Source: a virus. From it: a stretch of DNA of 64,000 nt. The translations under genes and the position numbers were made by a program. The notes under the pieces are model-generated. The model was not told the origin of the DNA. It did no database searches and saw only the letters and a list, made by a program, of their open reading frames with translations. This document shows positions 31,500 to 39,849 of the stretch, one piece after another. Where the stretch lies: positions 32,001 through 96,000 of the IMG/VR virus record IMGVR_UViG_3300046820_001062; one strand, 5' to 3'. Position 1 is the stretch's first letter, and each line of letters opens with the position of its first letter.

Positions 31500-32599
31500 T
31501 AGATATTGCTCTTAAACATGTTATAGTAATTATGATACTGAGCTTTTCTATTTAACTCCCACGTTTTCTTTAGTTCTCTAAAGTCTGGTGTGTTGATAAA
31601 TGATAAAGCGTTGTTTCTAGCCACTCTTAGTTTTTGTTCTACTAATTGTAGATAGTTAATGACATTCTCTCCAGACATATATAAGTTTTCATATATTCTC
31701 TGTTTTAATGCATACTCATAAAATTCATTTACTAATGGATGTTCCATAACCAAAAGGTTACCTTTGTCATCCTCCATTAAACTTTGATAATTAATATATA
31801 CAACACCCTCATCAAAGTTTGTAACTAAAAATCCATTTTTGATATAAGCTACATTTGGATCATGACTATTCAAATTAAAACAATCAGCAGATACTGATTT
31901 GCTTTTTTCTATTCTTAAAGGAATCAAATGTGAATGCTCATATCTTCTTCCATTTAGATTATATGCTACAACTTTTTTACCACTTGCATCACTTACAATT
32001 TCAGCACTAGTTCCGCCACTTGTTGTAGCAATAGTGTTACCACCCATAACTACAAGTCTAACTTCTGTAATTACTTCATTTGATTCAGAAATTAACTCAA
32101 AACTATTATTGTCTAGATGATGAATTTCAAATGACAATAAGTTTCCATCCACGCTTAATGCTTGAACTAATATATTTGCTGTACCAATATTGTGGTTAAT
32201 AACGTTGATTCCAGGAAGAATATTTCTAATAACGCTGTATTGTCTTACATTACTACCTCCTGTTAACTTGAACATTTTTTGTGCAAGAAGAACACCTTCT
32301 AACATTCCCTCTGTATATGTCTTAGCTCTTTCTTGTAAATAGTATGAGTTATGGCCTTCACATACAAGAGCAAAGTTTAAAACATAAAAGTCTTGTGGTA
32401 ATTTACCTTTACCTTTATGTATCTCAATTGCTTTTGAACGTGACTGATTAACTTTAAGACCTAACTCATAGTTTACTTTCATAGCAACTTTGATTAGTTG
32501 CTGTGGATCTATTGAACTTTCTAAGTCATAAGTTCGCATGTCTATCTTGACACTCTCAAGTAGTTCATCAAATTCTTTATATTGTACTTCAGTCAACAT
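31499..32599 (-). CDS. Tail ring / tubular protein (366 aa)
   Basis: Position before the muzzle. Contains GKGKLPQDF and YIKNGFLVTNFDEGVVYINYQSL...DDKGNLLV, consistent with crAss-like ring proteins. Contains an internal ~100-aa beta-rich insertion. Confidence 0.62.
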   Translation of the reverse strand: MLTEVQYKEFDELLESVKIDMRTYDLESSIDPQQLIKVAMKVNYELGLKVNQSRSKAIEIHKGKGKLPQDFYVLNFALVCEGHNSYYLQERAKTYTEGMLEGVLLAQKMFKLTGGSNVRQYSVIRNILPGINVINHNIGTANILVQALSVDGNLLSFEIHHLDNNSFELISESNEVITEVRLVVMGGNTIATTSGGTSAEIVSDASGKKVVAYNLNGRRYEHSHLIPLRIEKSKSVSADCFNLNSHDPNVAYIKNGFLVTNFDEGVVYINYQSLMEDDKGNLLVMEHPLVNEFYEYALKQRIYENLYMSGENVINYLQLVEQKLRVARNNALSFINTPDFRELKKTWELNRKAQYHNYYNMFKSNI

Positions 32600-33932: not shown

Positions 33933-35279
33933 TTAGACTGTATATGTAAATTCACTTATCAATCCTTTGCTTGAATCATGAATGTGCATAATAGCTGAAC
34001 GCGTATTTCCCACATATTTGTTGTGGTAATGGTAATAATCAGAAGAAGTTAAGGCAGGTATAATTCTAGTAACAAAGCCATTTTGTTCATTTTCAGTCAC
34101 AAACTGTGTTGTTTTACGTCCATGATAATGACCTGTGTAAAGCATTCTATATTTAGAAGATCCCCATTCATTTGGAAATTCAACAGCATATACTAATGGA
34201 TTATTCTTAGCAGTCACGTCCCCATGTTCAAAACAAAGCATGTTTAAACCATAAGTTAATACCTTTCTCTCTGCATAGGTAACATTAAAATCTATATCTT
34301 CCCAAGTCTTAAATGCTTGAGAAACAGCATGTAGCAAATGGAATGAACTAAGTCTGTCATGGTTACCTGGAATAAACAATACCTCAAGTTTCTCACAAAA
34401 CTGTTTAGCTGTTCCAATTGCCTGGCAGATACCATCAAAAGCTTTAATGTAAGCTTCAGTTGCCATCTCTGAGTTCTCTACTGGAGTTCCCTTTGTAGTT
34501 GTACCACCAAAGGTGTCCATATTAAGTGTATCTGGGCCTATTACAAAGACTATCTTCTCTAAGACATAGTTTCTATTAGCTTTGTCAATTAAGTAGCTTA
34601 CAGAGTCATTTAAGATCTCTGCCATGTCTTCGTTCCCTACTTTACCAAAGTGAAGATCCTGTAAAGAAAGAACCCCACAAACTTTTTCTTGAGAACTTGT
34701 GTTCTGCCAAAAAGCTGCAGGGTCTAATGGAGTTATTTGTGGAACCTGATATGTTTCAAGTAACTCTAAAAATGTACTTTGTATTTTTTCTTCTTGTGGT
34801 ACTCTGCTTACTAGCGCAGATACTAACCACTTGGTTCCTTTTTCTTTATTCCAGTATTGAGATAGTTTCCACTTCTTTGTGTCTATCTTCAGTAATGCAA
34901 TAATTTCTTCAGCACTACGCGGCTCTGTTGCAGACAGGCCAACAATCTTACTGGTTCCTGATTCCAAGTCTTCATGAATTTCAATTCTCTTAGAATCTTC
35001 TTCTTTATTGTGCCATCTGTCTTTAGCATCAATTCCTAGTTGTTGTTCTAGTTCAAATAAAATTTCTTCATTTGATGCAACATCTGATTTTTTTGTTAAC
35101 TTTGCTTCAACCATTTTAATGATGACAGAATCTATTTTTGAACCTGCTTCATTTAAAACTTTGATTACTTCTTCTTTTATCTTTTGGTAATAAGATAGTG
35201 AAATACCTAGTCTTTGAGCTTCAGCTTCTGCTGACTTTTTTCTTTTTAAGCTATGGTATACTGATGATATAATATTCAT
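33933..35279 (-). CDS. Calcineurin-like metallophosphoesterase with N-terminal HTH-like region (448 aa)
   Basis: All five motifs are present: QDLHFG, GPDTLNMD, PGNHD, EHGD, GHYH. Confidence 0.85.
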   Translation of the reverse strand: MNIISSVYHSLKRKKSAEAEAQRLGISLSYYQKIKEEVIKVLNEAGSKIDSVIIKMVEAKLTKKSDVASNEEILFELEQQLGIDAKDRWHNKEEDSKRIEIHEDLESGTSKIVGLSATEPRSAEEIIALLKIDTKKWKLSQYWNKEKGTKWLVSALVSRVPQEEKIQSTFLELLETYQVPQITPLDPAAFWQNTSSQEKVCGVLSLQDLHFGKVGNEDMAEILNDSVSYLIDKANRNYVLEKIVFVIGPDTLNMDTFGGTTTKGTPVENSEMATEAYIKAFDGICQAIGTAKQFCEKLEVLFIPGNHDRLSSFHLLHAVSQAFKTWEDIDFNVTYAERKVLTYGLNMLCFEHGDVTAKNNPLVYAVEFPNEWGSSKYRMLYTGHYHGRKTTQFVTENEQNGFVTRIIPALTSSDYYHYHNKYVGNTRSAIMHIHDSSKGLISEFTYTV

Positions 35280-35431
35280 AGGTTATTTTTTGTATGGTTA
35301 AACTAAGCAAAAATAGGAAATTAATTTATTATTTCTTAGAAATGCAATGGTTTTTAAAAAGATACCCCCAGCTTTCGCCAGGGGCACTTCTCTAACAAGC
35401 AGGAAAACCAACAAACCTACTTATCAAATTT

Positions 35432-36202
35432 TTAGATTATAATAGTATCTACAGTGTTATCATGCCCTGTAACTGCTGCTGAACAAATATCTGCTCCAGA
35501 AGCAAAATAAGCACCTTGTGAGCAAGCATTGATGCTTCCATAATTAGTACCAGCAGCCACAAGAACTGTAAATGATTGTGTCGTAGTATTAGTACATCCT
35601 GCACCTCTTGAGGTCCAATAAACTTCAACATTAAAGTTAGTATCTACTGATACAGGAGCATCTAAAGAAACACTTGCACCCATGTGATCATCAATAGTGC
35701 CACCAATACAAGGTTCCATTGATCCATAAGCACCTATTACATTAATAGTAGTTCCTTCACCACAAGCACCATTAATAGTAAGTTCAGATTCATTACCTAA
35801 TATAACACTTCCTTCTCTAGCACAAAATGTAGTTGCATCGTATCCACTAACACCTCCAACAGTCACTTGTTGAATCTGACCTCCACAATCTATATAAGCT
35901 GTAGTTTGTGCTTGAGCTGAACTAGTTGATACTGTATAAGAAATACAGTTTTCAGCAGGACAATCTAATGCAGTGGCTACAGTTGATGCTGCAGTGCTCT
36001 GATCAGATTGATATTCTCCTGTAGGGCAATTTGTTTTTACTGTTACATTATATGATACTCCACATTCAATACCTGTTGTAATAACCACAGGTGAAGAAGA
36101 TGCCGTTGTACATGTTGGAGTACCACCAGTTGTAGGAACATAACAAACTTCATAGCTTGTTATTCCAGGTACTGGTGTGAAATTTACTGTTAATTGTGCC
36201 AT
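35432..36202 (-). CDS. Cys-rich fibre tip protein with N-terminal FN3-like domain lacking strand A (256 aa)
   Basis: MAQLTVNFTPV...YEVCY...GIECGVSYNVTVKTNC is FN3-like. C-terminal beta-rich domain follows. Confidence 0.55.
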   Translation of the reverse strand: MAQLTVNFTPVPGITSYEVCYVPTTGGTPTCTTASSSPVVITTGIECGVSYNVTVKTNCPTGEYQSDQSTAASTVATALDCPAENCISYTVSTSSAQAQTTAYIDCGGQIQQVTVGGVSGYDATTFCAREGSVILGNESELTINGACGEGTTINVIGAYGSMEPCIGGTIDDHMGASVSLDAPVSVDTNFNVEVYWTSRGAGCTNTTTQSFTVLVAAGTNYGSINACSQGAYFASGADICSAAVTGHDNTVDTIII

Positions 36203-36227
36203 ATTAATATGATTTTTTATAATTCTT

Positions 36228-36761
36228 TTAAGATACTACAGCTGATAGATTTGTTGGTGCAGGACATGCAGGTGCGTCATTAATTGTAACTGAACCTGAA
36301 CAGTTTGCAACATTAGTACCAACAGCAATAGTAAAACTATAGTTGTAAGTAACACCATAATCACCTACAAAATTTATTACAGTTCCTGTAGGTCCTTCAG
36401 CAACATTATATGGAGCTTGTCCATCAACGTTAATGTCGCCAGAATAGATAGCATCTCCTGTCAAATCAGGAAAACCAAGAGTTACATTTCTACCTTCTAC
36501 AAATTCTCCAACACTTGGACAAACTGCTTTACCAGCTTGAACATCTGTTGAATCTGTAGGACCACCAACTTCACATAAATTTACAATTTGATAAGTATAT
36601 AATACATTATCTAATGCAGTAGTATCTGAATAGTTAGAGGTAGCAGCGGGTAAAACAGAGCTGATATCTGCAAAAGAACCAGCTCCTGATTTTCTTTGAA
36701 CTTTCTGACCTGTACTGTTTGCATCATTTACAGGTGTCCATGAAAGATTTATTGTTGCCAT
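36228..36761 (-). CDS. FN3/Ig-like fibre protein (177 aa), C-terminus CPAPTNLSAVVS
   Basis: MATINLSWTPV...LDNVLYTYQIVNLC is an FN3 core. A second Ig-like domain follows, then a terminal FN3 A-strand-like peptide. Confidence 0.6.
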   Translation of the reverse strand: MATINLSWTPVNDANSTGQKVQRKSGAGSFADISSVLPAATSNYSDTTALDNVLYTYQIVNLCEVGGPTDSTDVQAGKAVCPSVGEFVEGRNVTLGFPDLTGDAIYSGDINVDGQAPYNVAEGPTGTVINFVGDYGVTYNYSFTIAVGTNVANCSGSVTINDAPACPAPTNLSAVVS

Positions 36762-36793
36762 TTTATTTTAATTTTTTATTTTAATTATTTTAG

Positions 36794-38257
36794 TTATGAA
36801 ACTGTTGCTGTTAAGTTTGTTGGTGCAGGACACTCTTCAGGAGGTCTACATGCATTTTTTACAAATGATATTTCTACAGTTGTAGATTCACCAAAGTTTT
36901 CACAAATTGTTTTAGCTTTAACTTTATATGTATCACCTGCAATTAATCCTAAACCAAAGAAGTTAGCACTTGCGGAACCTCCACCAGGTACACTTATAGT
37001 TTGGGTATCAACATCTACGTTACCACCTGTCACATGTACCAATGTAAACTGAATGCTTAATGCAGTTGGATCACTAACTGTAGCAGTTGCTGTAATTCCA
37101 CTTTCAGTTTTAGTACATACCTCTTCGTATCCTAAACCTGTTGGTACTGGACATTCAGATACACATTCTAAAGTTGTAGTTGAAGCAGTAATCCAAGCAG
37201 AATCACCACCTGTACATTTAGTTTTAACTCTTACATTATAGTTTGTTAATTGAGTCAAACCAGATACTGTAATTGTATTTGGACCACTAAGAGTAGTTGT
37301 CAACATTCCACCTGCAGTCCAGTTTGCAGAACCTGCAACTTGATATTCTAATGTTACATTAGGATTGCTAGGAATATGAGCTATATCTGCAACAAATGCT
37401 TCACAGTCTACATTAGTAATACTAAATTCTGGAGCAGGACAAGGAGCAGGACAAGCAATAACAGTAACAGGTAATGTTGTAACAACATCACAAAGACCAA
37501 ATGCACTATTTTTAGTTACTTTAACGATATAAGTGCCAGGAGCAACACCACCAAAGTTATACATATAACTAGATGACATACCTGTTGGTGTAAATGTGTG
37601 TGATTGTAAAACAACAGTAGGACTAGAAGTACTAACTAATTCAGCAAGTAAACTTGTAGCAGTACCATCATCAGAAAAAGAAACTTCAAATGAAGCACAT
37701 ACTAATGATCTACCAAAAATGTTTGTAATGGGATTACATGAAGTACATGATTCTGTTTCTTCTAATGCAGGGCATGGTGTTCCATCACATGATGCTGGAG
37801 TAGTAATGGTTCTTGTTCTAGTTCTAACTCCTCCTACACAATCTGACCAAGGACCCCAAGCAGATACAACACAGTTAACAGGCAAACAACATTCTCTAGT
37901 TTCTTCTAGATCAGGACAAGCTGCTCCACCATTTTGAGGTGCTTGAATAACTGTTCTTGTTCTAGTTTGAACACCATTTAAACATTCTGACCATTCAGAC
38001 CATGCTGATACCTCACAATCAACAACTGGAGGTGTACCATCGCAACAATCACAAAGTTTGTTTGCAATGATTTGCAATACTTGATTAAGATTAGCACCTG
38101 TAGTAATTCCAAGACATGGAATTGCAGGTCCTGTATATCTAACACATGTGTCAAGAACTATCTCTTCACATGGTTCTCCAGTACAATCTGGTGGTGCAGG
38201 AAGCTCAACACAAGGTTCTGGCTCGTTGCACTGATGACAATATTGATTAGGATACAT
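36794..38257 (-). CDS. Cys-rich fibre protein with two thrombospondin type-1 repeats and FN3-like domains (487 aa)
   Basis: Two repeats of C-x-VSAW-x-x-WS-x-C...QTRTRT/RTRTRT...CP-x-LEET-x-x-C (aa 80-123 and 128-171). FN3-like repeats follow (YNVRVKTKC, YKVKAKTIC). Ends CPAPTNLTATVS. Confidence 0.72.
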   Translation of the reverse strand: MYPNQYCHQCNEPEPCVELPAPPDCTGEPCEEIVLDTCVRYTGPAIPCLGITTGANLNQVLQIIANKLCDCCDGTPPVVDCEVSAWSEWSECLNGVQTRTRTVIQAPQNGGAACPDLEETRECCLPVNCVVSAWGPWSDCVGGVRTRTRTITTPASCDGTPCPALEETESCTSCNPITNIFGRSLVCASFEVSFSDDGTATSLLAELVSTSSPTVVLQSHTFTPTGMSSSYMYNFGGVAPGTYIVKVTKNSAFGLCDVVTTLPVTVIACPAPCPAPEFSITNVDCEAFVADIAHIPSNPNVTLEYQVAGSANWTAGGMLTTTLSGPNTITVSGLTQLTNYNVRVKTKCTGGDSAWITASTTTLECVSECPVPTGLGYEEVCTKTESGITATATVSDPTALSIQFTLVHVTGGNVDVDTQTISVPGGGSASANFFGLGLIAGDTYKVKAKTICENFGESTTVEISFVKNACRPPEECPAPTNLTATVS

Positions 38258-38286: not shown

Positions 38287-39849
38287 TTAACAAGTTACTT
38301 CACCTGCGCATGCCACAGCTCTATTTGTAGAAATTGCACCTAGACAATCATAAGTTTTATACTTAGGAGTACATGGATCAACTCCACATTTCACATATCT
38401 CTCCATTTCATAAATATGATCTACTGAAGAAACACCTGTTGCAAATGTTTTTGTAATTGATTCAGACACAGCAAGTGAACAATCTCCATCAACTGTATAA
38501 TTAATTACTGCTGTAAATGGAGCAAGTGAGTTTGCTACAGGATTTCCAGTAACAATATCTTTCAATGTAAGTGTAGTTTTTCTTCTCTTTGTTACATAAG
38601 AGTCACCATCACATACTGTTGTAATATCATCAAGTGATACATCAGTTACACTAACACAATAAAGTACAGTTGTCAAAGCTATTTTACCTACAATTGTTGC
38701 AACTGTTGAATCATCACAGCTATACTCTGCTACAATTTGTACTTGATAATCTTTTGCAGGATCAGGAACAACTGTTATATCATGGAAATTAGTTCCAAAA
38801 GGTTTTACAACATTTAAAATTGGTGAACCAACTGTTGATGAACCATTCCATTCATACACTTTAACAGTATATTGTAATGGAGCTTCTGATACAGTGCCTG
38901 TAGCTGGAGCTGACCAAGTTATTTTAGAACCTGAAGATGTTAGATTTGTAATCTGAATATTTGATACAGGAAGTGGTACACATGGTAAAGTAGTATTTGA
39001 ACTATTAACAATTGCAGCTCTCATATCACAAATTGTTAACCACATGTTTACTATAGTTTCTGACAAAGTAGTTGGATTTGCAACCCAACCTGGTATCAAT
39101 GACATTGATGCCGCAGGATTACTTAAAGGTTCTGCAGAATCTAAACTTGCACATTCTGTTCCAATTGCTGTTGATAGTGCAGCATTAGTTCCAAGTAATG
39201 TTGTCAATTGACAGAATTTACTTTCAAATGCTGAAAATGCAGTACCAATTGGCACAACAGTTCCTGGTGTTGATGAACTTGCACATTGAGATACAACAGA
39301 AATTGAAGCTCCTGTTCCACCTCCACCACCTGAATTTGCTTCAAGTGCTGCAACTCTTCCACCTAAGTTGTCAAGAGTTGAGTTAATGCTAGTTATATCA
39401 TCAATGATTTCACATATTTTAGATGCTAAATAAGCACTATATTCATTTGGCAATAATGCTGTAACTTCATCACCATCCTCTGTAAAATATAAACAAGCAG
39501 GTAATGAAATAGGTGTTGGTGTTGAACCACCTCCAGAACTTTCACCACAACAAGTAGAAGCAATTTGACATTGCTTATCTATCATTGCTTGTAAAGCTCC
39601 AAGAATTGTTGTAGGTTCTGCTACACCTGGAGCAAGAATACATTTAAAATCAAGTGTACTTAAATCAATAACACCTGAAGTTATTTCACACAACTTGGTT
39701 GCTAGATCAAAAATAACATCTGTAATTGTATCTCCTTTACAAAGATCAATACAAGGAATATCTGGACCTTGCCAAATAACACAAGAAGATGATGTTTTTG
39801 TACATCCATCTTCAGGTTTTAATTTTAAGTTGCTGTGTAATGGTTTCAT
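38287..39849 (-). CDS. Cys-rich fibre/spike protein with coiled-coil and FN3-like domain (520 aa)
   Basis: N-terminal CVIWQGPDIPC module, heptad segment (ITSINSTLDNLGGRVAALE), FN3-like PVSNIQITNLTSSGSKITWSAP...YQVQIVAEYSC. Confidence 0.6.
   Translation of the reverse strand: MKPLHSNLKLKPEDGCTKTSSSCVIWQGPDIPCIDLCKGDTITDVIFDLATKLCEITSGVIDLSTLDFKCILAPGVAEPTTILGALQAMIDKQCQIASTCCGESSGGGSTPTPISLPACLYFTEDGDEVTALLPNEYSAYLASKICEIIDDITSINSTLDNLGGRVAALEANSGGGGGTGASISVVSQCASSSTPGTVVPIGTAFSAFESKFCQLTTLLGTNAALSTAIGTECASLDSAEPLSNPAASMSLIPGWVANPTTLSETIVNMWLTICDMRAAIVNSSNTTLPCVPLPVSNIQITNLTSSGSKITWSAPATGTVSEAPLQYTVKVYEWNGSSTVGSPILNVVKPFGTNFHDITVVPDPAKDYQVQIVAEYSCDDSTVATIVGKIALTTVLYCVSVTDVSLDDITTVCDGDSYVTKRRKTTLTLKDIVTGNPVANSLAPFTAVINYTVDGDCSLAVSESITKTFATGVSSVDHIYEMERYVKCGVDPCTPKYKTYDCLGAISTNRAVACAGEVTC

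Follow-up and report, generated by a model that had tools for sequence, protein, structure and literature searches.

Fibronectin type III domains split between consecutive genes of a crAss-like phage: a candidate strand-complementation connector for fibre proteins

Fibronectin type III (FN3) domains appear to be divided between neighbouring genes in a viral DNA stretch of 64,000 nucleotides (positions 32,001 to 96,000 of IMG/VR record IMGVR_UViG_3300046820_001062; hereafter the window). The genes encode proteins of 487, 177 and 256 residues. In each neighbouring pair, the upstream protein has a solitary FN3 A strand at its C-terminal end (the donor tail), and the downstream protein begins with an FN3 domain that lacks this strand (the acceptor domain). 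We propose, with a probability of about 0.7, that strand complementation in trans joins these three proteins as anchor, shaft, and tip, separate chains of one virion fibre. The analysis shows how the sequence is laid out, that this layout is conserved, and that a complex model run with controls is supportive; actual binding, the disulfide, the assembly order, and the position in the virion are inferred. The genes and the elements of the two junctions, with their putative roles and the evidence for each, are listed below.

36794..38257, minus strand: 487-residue proximal fibre protein (open reading frame (ORF) list; PF19028 TSP1_spondin match and weak fn3 match)
36797..36832, minus strand: donor tail 1, residues 476-487 of the 487-residue protein (repeat consensus and profile score)
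36762..36793, minus strand: 32-nucleotide A/T-rich spacer between the 487- and 177-residue protein genes (3% G+C; stops in three frames)
36228..36761, minus strand: 177-residue shaft protein (ORF list; AlphaFold2, Foldseek, and 28 homologues)
36522..36761, minus strand: acceptor domain 1, the N-terminal FN3 domain of the 177-residue protein, beginning at the B strand (phmmer and profile)
36231..36266, minus strand: donor tail 2, residues 166-177 of the 177-residue protein (conservation and complex model)
36203..36227, minus strand: 25-nucleotide A/T-rich spacer between the 177- and 256-residue protein genes (sequence reading)
35432..36202, minus strand: 256-residue distal (tip) protein, without a donor tail (ORF list; 50 homologues; AlphaFold2)
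35963..36202, minus strand: acceptor domain 2, the N-terminal FN3-like domain of the 256-residue protein, without an A strand (complex model; Cys59)

Anatomy and modelling of the split domains

The 487-residue protein ends in ECPAPTNLTATVS and the 177-residue protein in ACPAPTNLSAVVS, both 12-residue tails of the CPxPTNL type. The 177-residue protein begins with MATINLSWTPV, and the 256-residue protein begins with MAQLTVNFTPV. An earlier interpretation made from the letters alone (the sequence-only reading) had assigned A-strand tails to the first two proteins and FN3 starts without that strand to the last two, and the ORF translations agree with it. They also agree that intact domains within the cluster begin CPAP, CPVPTGL, or CVPLPVSNI, and the sequence itself has the spacers of 32 and 25 nucleotides and the different reading frames that had been described. 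Frame offsets are 2 at the first junction (487/177) and 1 at the second (177/256), and both spacers are 3-8% G+C and contain stops. Each acceptor ORF begins at the earliest start codon downstream of an in-frame stop; thus, the missing strand is not encodable upstream in that ORF.

FN3 domains are seven-strand beta-sandwiches (strands A, B, C, C', E, F, and G) whose strand B contains a conserved Trp and whose strand C or F contains a Tyr. The N-terminal domain of the 177-residue protein provides strands B to G, and the family profile and complex model described below take the A strand from the upstream tail. A phmmer search with residues 1-80 of this protein returned 3312 proteins, mostly giant multi-repeat proteins, and of the 150 listed, all except one have matches that begin within query residues 1-6. 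Across 986 intact repeats, the 13 residues ahead of the B strand have the consensus P-A-A-P-T-(G/N)-L-T-A-T-A-V-S, as in the donor tail. Tails and acceptors were also scored against a profile of this FN3 family (90 positions, built from 250 intact repeats). The N-terminal domain of the 177-residue protein alone scores 60.4 bits over profile positions 17-82. Preceded by the tail of the 487-residue protein, it scores 72.0 bits over positions 4-81, one residue being deleted where the two meet, and preceded by the tail of the 177-residue protein it scores 70.0 bits over positions 3-81. Five shuffled tails give 61.0-64.9 bits, with alignments starting at positions 8-15. The tail of the 487-residue protein therefore adds 11.6 bits compared to 0.6-4.5 bits from shuffled tails, a gain that indicates a match between tail and N-terminal domain exceeding chance. 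The N-terminal domain of the 256-residue protein, a weaker match, follows the same pattern (5.8 bits over positions 4-85 with the tail and 0.6 bits without). Taken with the 986-repeat consensus and the AlphaFold2 model of the 177-residue protein, the profile bears out the earlier statement that the upstream proteins end in a lone FN3 A strand and that the downstream FN3 domains start without one.

AlphaFold2 models the 177-residue protein with a predicted local distance difference test (pLDDT) score of 95 as two sandwiches, the acceptor N-terminal domain (residues 1-80) and a complete second FN3-like domain (residues 81-160). Strands are predicted at residues 2-7, 16-25, 43-49, 55-63, and 74-76, followed by the second sandwich at residues 85-159, and the tail (residues 160-177) is coil. 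Foldseek matches this model to tandem FN3 structures, among them fibronectin 7-B-8 and tenascin, with a probability of 1.00. The 256-residue protein is modelled (pLDDT 83) as three FN3-like sandwiches in a row, the acceptor (about residues 1-80) and two further ones. Foldseek matched it to FN3-like strings only, with no lectin or enzyme fold.

A complex was modelled between the full 177-residue protein (28-row alignment) and residues 1-85 of the 256-residue protein (custom alignment of 33 sequences; the tool reports 31 rows). It had an ipSAE of 0.81 in all three runs, compared to 0.00 for the best of three controls. In the calibration of the tool, which is only rough with custom alignments, the mark was reached by 58 of 80 solved complexes and by 2 of 110 mismatched pairs. 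The three runs agree on the contacts, and partner pLDDT is 91-92. In the model, the shaft contacts its partner solely through residues 162-177, which lie against residues 2-11 (the B strand) and 47-79 of the 256-residue protein. Contact pairs 172:8, 173:7, 174:6, 175:5, and 176:4 form an antiparallel ladder, as FN3 strands A and B do, and the shaft's own empty acceptor domain is left unused. Modelling of this pair had been suggested as a check in the sequence-only reading, and the predicted complex has the expected arrangement, with the tail of the 177-residue protein placed as the A strand of the N-terminal domain of the 256-residue protein. The complex model supports binding of the two proteins.

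Cys166 of the shaft touches Cys59 of the tip in the complex model. Both residues are invariant (Cys59 in 33 sequences), and an interchain Cys166-Cys59 disulfide is a possible lock for the joint. By analogy, Cys476 of the 487-residue protein with Cys63 of the shaft would be the second candidate pair. The position of shaft Cys63 is Asn in 685 of the 986 intact cellular repeats, where Cys is nearly absent (0.47%). Disulfide stabilization has been reported for the crAss001 virion (PMC10172136).

Conservation of the split among relatives

The 177-residue protein has 28 homologues (177-206 residues, 45-85% identity). M1, A2, L6, W8, P10, C63, and C166 are invariant among them, and the Cys-Pro-x-Pro-Thr-(Gly/Asn)-Leu tail is kept. 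The mean majority-residue fraction in this family is 0.91 for the B strand, 0.77 for the tail, and 0.58 for domain 2. Tail codons differ by many synonymous changes, indicating that the constraint acts on the protein. The 256-residue protein has 50 homologues, and most of the full-length ones (about 255-263 residues) begin MA/MP..(L/I).(I/V).F. A donor-ending gene is followed directly by a B-strand-starting gene in four long contigs and 23 metagenome loci (labels beginning with L denote metagenome loci, and those beginning with P denote proteins). Conservation of the donor-then-acceptor gene order among homologues, on which the sequence-only reading had staked its model, is therefore found. The same joint also occurs in a second, non-syntenic phage group.

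The proteins on either side of the joint vary widely among relatives. Upstream donor proteins are very diverse (91-560 residues), tips range from 80 to 384 residues, and chains have two to four members. The smallest anchors (91-94 residues in L011 and L016) are little beyond a Cys-rich anchor domain and a tail. We examined 35 junctions (the window plus L001-L023). Their gaps range from overlapping genes up to 54 nucleotides, 34 of them being at most 34 nucleotides, and any frame is used. The layout recurs in independent metagenomes, which rules out a sequencing or assembly error, and judging from its conservation the split is old and maintained, not a recent break. The donor gene stops at TAA in 35/35 junctions, which may be a simple reflection of A/T-rich genomes.

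Some relatives depart from the basic layout. At L002:5580-6696 and L007:678-1497, the tip itself is divided into two genes 4 nucleotides apart, and the upstream tip gene ends in a 5-residue Cys-(Ser/Ala)-Pro-Leu-Ile stub, not the 12-residue tail. In the second phage group (L013, L018, L019, L022, and L023), acceptors outnumber donors, and the first acceptor-plus-donor protein (185-189 residues) is preceded by a small acidic protein of 92-99 residues without a donor tail. The empty site of this first acceptor could be filled by self-polymerisation or by a strand from another virion protein.

Shaft and tip are naturally fused in some relatives. The fusion proteins (346-349 residues) consist of shaft residues 1-159 and tip residues 85-254, and the donor tail and the acceptor domain are both gone. 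Members are P0060, P0062, P0063, and P0065, with the gene at L028:4001-5044. In L028, the 347-residue fusion is encoded in a syntenic cluster, behind a 488-residue protein gene that still ends in the donor tail. A fusion that lacks the connector ties shaft and tip together as one object and shows that the split FN3 domain is a connector, dispensable once the chains are covalently joined. The L028 fusion has an acceptor and no donor, which shows that exactly one shaft unit is enough for a viable fibre. No fused forms of junction 1 were found in a search for longer relatives of the 177-residue protein, which is weak evidence.

Proposed mechanism and competing explanations

Under the proposed mechanism, one FN3 domain would be split per neighbouring pair, the break falling exactly at the A-B turn. 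The A strand would come from the upstream protein, as a C-terminal tail of 12 residues (Cys-Pro-x-Pro-Thr-Asn-Leu-x-Ala-x-Val-x), and the downstream protein, probably after Met removal, would begin with the B strand of an FN3 domain having six strands, not seven. After translation, the tail would insert antiparallel to the exposed B strand and complete the sandwich, linking anchor to shaft and shaft to tip head to tail, as in an ordinary tandem FN3 array. The Cys just before the tail would adjoin the conserved Cys at the end of the acceptor F strand, and a disulfide may form once the virion is extracellular. The connector is generic, as the anchors, shafts, and tips attached through this joint differ between relatives, and it is probably a plug-and-socket for the exchange of whole-gene modules. 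A broader claim would make the split FN3 domain a natural tag-and-catcher standard in many uncultured phages, where any donor fits any acceptor, a disulfide locks the joint, fibres are combinatorial, and some phages build pilin-like polymers; we hold this version only tentatively and give it a minor chance.

Several observations weigh against complementation in trans. Pfam fn3 (PF00041) does not match the 177-residue protein at E<=1, and the 487- and 520-residue proteins (the latter encoded next to the former) score 22.9 and 17.5 bits, under the 25-bit gathering cut-off of this family; the FN3 assignment of the 177-residue protein thus rests on structure and the family profile. AlphaFold2 models the acceptor domain of the 177-residue protein confidently without an A strand, so it might be stable alone. 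Acceptors without an adjacent donor-ending gene occur in L004 and in the first gene of the second phage group, and the donors of L002 and L007 are reduced to the 5-residue stub. The two tails are nearly identical and perform alike on the acceptor profile (72.0 and 70.0 bits), and they do not explain the order of pairing. The high complex score may reflect the rebuilding of a familiar FN3 fold (a memory effect) and is no proof that the chains meet in the cell.

Some of these points would suit a different history, in which the joints are no more than scars left by modular evolution. Genes would have been cut, or would recombine, at the conserved FN3 boundary, the tail and the A-less domain would persist as tolerated leftovers, and the proteins would attach to the virion or to one another in some other way or not at all. 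Modules have clearly been shuffled at these boundaries, as the size ranges of anchors and tips and the differing chain lengths attest. Confident folding of the acceptor without the strand and the acceptors that lack a neighbouring donor are also in keeping with leftovers. However, a functionless 12-residue tail should decay, yet this one equals the best domain in conservation, is constrained at the protein level, and is retained on unrelated upstream domains. The natural fusion loses donor and acceptor together, and the controlled complex model puts the tail in the place of the A strand. We consider leftover scars doubtful. Self-polymerisation of the shaft, which would give a pilus-like fibre of variable length with the tip as a cap, the arrangement put forward in the sequence-only reading, we likewise regard as having a small chance. 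The shaft tail fits the acceptor profile of its own protein nearly as well as the anchor tail does, the modelled interface consists of the tail only and has little visible specificity, and the first acceptor-plus-donor protein of the second phage group has no upstream donor gene. In L028, however, the shaft is fused to the tip and donorless, and cannot polymerise, although the cluster is otherwise the same. Donors and acceptors are equal in number in the genome studied here (two and two), which favours a defined chain, and virion appendages are usually of fixed composition.

The 177-residue protein contains both halves of a split domain, and its tail might fold back in cis on its own N-terminal domain to give a closed, circularly permuted monomer. 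The models make such self-complementation very unlikely: the tail is coil, not strand, in the monomer model, and in the complex model it went only to the partner with its own acceptor present as a competitor. Moreover, the 487-residue protein is donor only and the 256-residue protein acceptor only, and the topology of a tandem FN3 array would put the end of domain 2 far from the A-strand site of domain 1. Least probable of all, to the point of being negligible, is the production of one polypeptide by translational recoding (readthrough, frameshifting, or hopping) or RNA splicing. Joining the two ends does restore an FN3 domain almost exactly, and at a few loci of the second group the gap is an in-frame TAA plus one codon before the ATG. 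Across the 35 junctions, however, offsets of 0, 1, and 2 are about equally common and gaps run from overlap to 54 nucleotides. Spacers are unconserved, 0-25% G+C (up to 50% in four second-group junctions), and many have stops in several frames. No match between take-off and landing sites was found, and the final sense codon has no copy where a ribosome would land. TAA is the stop throughout, a codon not known to be reassigned in phage codes, and the window has no suppressor tRNA. Met1 is invariant, and the next residue is small (Ala, Ser, or Pro) in almost every acceptor seen, as for genuine starts; a small second residue fits Met removal given the specificity of Met aminopeptidase. Mixed frames, variable and unconserved gaps, stops, and the lack of a suppressor tRNA in the window lead us to reject recoding and splicing, and the earlier conclusion that stop readthrough cannot join these ORFs extends, on the 35-junction survey, to frameshifting. 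Complementation of separate chains in trans is the reading we prefer.

Genomic context and relation to known systems

The window belongs to a single contig of 123.7 kb. Downstream of the fibre genes, on the same strand, a 223-residue protein matches PF25702 CrAss_Ring_2 (80.2 bits, cut-off 27) and a 366-residue protein matches PF24228 CrAss_Ring_1 (38.7 bits, cut-off 27). A 1998-residue protein comes after the two ring protein genes, a Crassvirales-like arrangement in which ring proteins lie beside a giant muzzle protein. These matches, together with the 1998-residue protein, identify the genome by sequence as that of a crAss-like phage. Exactly two donors and two acceptors occur in the entire genome. 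The sole further member of this FN3 family in the genome is a 303-residue ORF outside the window (contig positions 13418-14329, minus strand), with an intact FN3 domain that covers profile positions 4-90 at 21.4 bits. Between the fibre genes and the crAss ring genes, where tail hub structural genes would be expected, is the gene for a 448-residue protein (33933-35279, minus strand) that matches PHROG 704 'DNA repair exonuclease' (E 1.7e-47) and has a weak metallophosphatase Pfam match. No cultured relatives turned up when the GenBank phage collection was searched at the DNA and protein levels with the region and the 520- and 177-residue proteins, and an IMG/VR scan with the 177-residue protein alone gave no match.

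The 520-, 487-, 177-, and 256-residue protein genes form a cluster that is preceded by a 384-residue protein gene and three small genes. Two further features flank the three fibre genes.

38287..39849, minus strand: 520-residue neighbouring fibre-like protein, without a donor tail (N-terminal anchor motif matches the 487-residue protein by BLASTP)
35362..35387, minus strand: terminator-like hairpin after the 256-residue protein gene (11-bp stem, then a T run)

The hairpin (35387..35362) lies in a 152-nucleotide 3' spacer of the 256-residue protein gene (35280-35431, minus strand). No terminator-like sites were found on the coding strand between the 487-, 177-, and 256-residue protein genes, and the three are predicted to be one transcription unit closed by this hairpin. 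The sequence flanking the hairpin recurs in relatives, with spacers of 150-165 nucleotides and an equivalent hairpin. The conserved spacer and hairpin may be an operon boundary or an RNA element.

The 487-residue protein consists of a Cys-rich N-terminal anchor domain (about residues 1-75), two TSP1 repeats (residues 77-173), Ig/FN3-like domains, and the donor tail. Its TSP1 (spondin-like) repeats (37745-38020, minus strand) match Pfam PF19028 (E 3.2e-21). Matches of these repeats in PDB sequences include complement C8/C9 and F-spondin, and the repeats are found in relatives too. A Cys-rich N-terminal motif is common to the 520-residue protein (residues 22-59) and the 487-residue protein (residues 37-74; BLASTP E 2e-05). 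The motif also makes up the minimal anchors of L011 and L016, and it is probably a virion-attachment domain. Because it has no donor tail, the 520-residue protein is placed outside the chain in this genome. In the second phage group, homologues of the 520-residue protein (about 406-498 residues) do end in a donor tail, and an acceptor gene follows them. PDB sequence searches with the 487- and 520-residue proteins gave TSP1-type matches only, with no match to the solved crAss001 virion proteins. In PHROGs, the 487-residue protein has a weak match to 'minor tail protein' (E 6e-4).

Completion of one protein's Ig-like fold by a strand of another is known from several systems. In chaperone-usher pili (Fim and Pap), an N-terminal donor extension replaces a missing C-terminal G strand with the help of a periplasmic chaperone and an usher. 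The phage joint has in common with them an incomplete Ig-like fold completed by a strand of the neighbouring subunit. The sequence-only reading had drawn this parallel, and the principle of strand donation holds; the polarity is opposite, with the donor at the C-terminus and the gap at the N-terminal A strand. Neither chaperone nor usher is present, the neighbouring genes being capsid, exonuclease-like, ring, and muzzle genes. SpyTag/SpyCatcher is an engineered split of the CnaB2 domain that is locked by a Lys-Asp isopeptide bond. As in that system, a terminal strand of 12-13 residues would dock onto what remains of an Ig-like domain and might be covalently locked there. The split described here occurs in nature, however, and its candidate lock, a Cys-Cys pair, is a contact observed in the model. 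Giant cellular surface proteins with tandem FN3 arrays share the domain family, and tail plus acceptor aligns end to end with one of their repeats. Unlike the split phage joint, the cellular repeats are continuous in one chain and almost Cys-free.

The likely hosts of crAss-like phages belong to Bacteroidota, the phylum that bears type V pili. These pili (FimA and Mfa1) are put together through strand exchange mediated by a protease, in which a C-terminal donor replaces an N-terminal strand (PMC13655056). The topology modelled for the phage joint is the same, with a C-terminal donor strand taking the place of the next subunit's N-terminal strand in a head-to-tail fibre. In type V pili, however, the N-terminal strand is present and is then freed by Rgp cleavage of an exported lipoprotein, whereas here the strand is absent from the gene. 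The phage acceptors start at the B strand after Met-Ala and have no signal peptide or lipobox, in contrast to a lipoprotein precursor. Type V pili are homopolymers, whereas the proteins here form a defined set of different chains; the folds are unrelated, and the likeness is one of mechanism only.

The closest phage parallel is in the baseplate tripod of Lactococcus phage Tuc2009, where a C-terminal beta-hairpin of BppU completes the sheet of BppA domain 2 in a composite, titin-like domain (PMC4742702). Our literature search on donor-strand or strand-complementation joints in phage fibres gave no description of the present system. The sequence-only reading, which knew of no description in phages, went too far: in the Tuc2009 crystal structure the BppU hairpin completes a BppA sandwich (PMC4742702). 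As in Tuc2009, a C-terminal extension of one adhesion-device protein is predicted here to complete the Ig-like sandwich of another, so that fragment complementation would serve as the connector. Tuc2009 donates a two-strand hairpin to a C-terminal domain, whereas here a single A strand is predicted to enter an N-terminal domain that begins at residue 1. The joint described here is also serial, with one protein both acceptor and donor, generic across modules, and marked by a conserved Cys pair. It occurs in crAss-like and other uncultured phages and is known from sequence and model; no sequence relation to the Tuc2009 proteins was found, and none was sought. The single A-strand donor, the acceptor at the extreme N-terminus, the serial joints, the generic reuse, and the candidate Cys lock set the present system apart from these others, and the principle has a solved phage precedent.

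For annotation, recognition of the split joint means that an ORF beginning or ending within an FN3 domain need not be a pseudogene or an assembly error, and that adjacent genes labelled "hypothetical proteins" can be assigned to one physical fibre. Protein-assembly tools could start from this natural pair, a tag of 12 residues and a catcher of 80, possibly with a covalent lock under redox control. If the proposed mechanism is true, virions would join cellular pili as structures built by donor-strand assembly, here serial and heteromeric. The mechanism would also account for the way in which crAss-like and other uncultured phages make and diversify their receptor-binding appendages, with whole genes swapped around a constant connector, and would bear on the evolution of host range in an abundant phage group.

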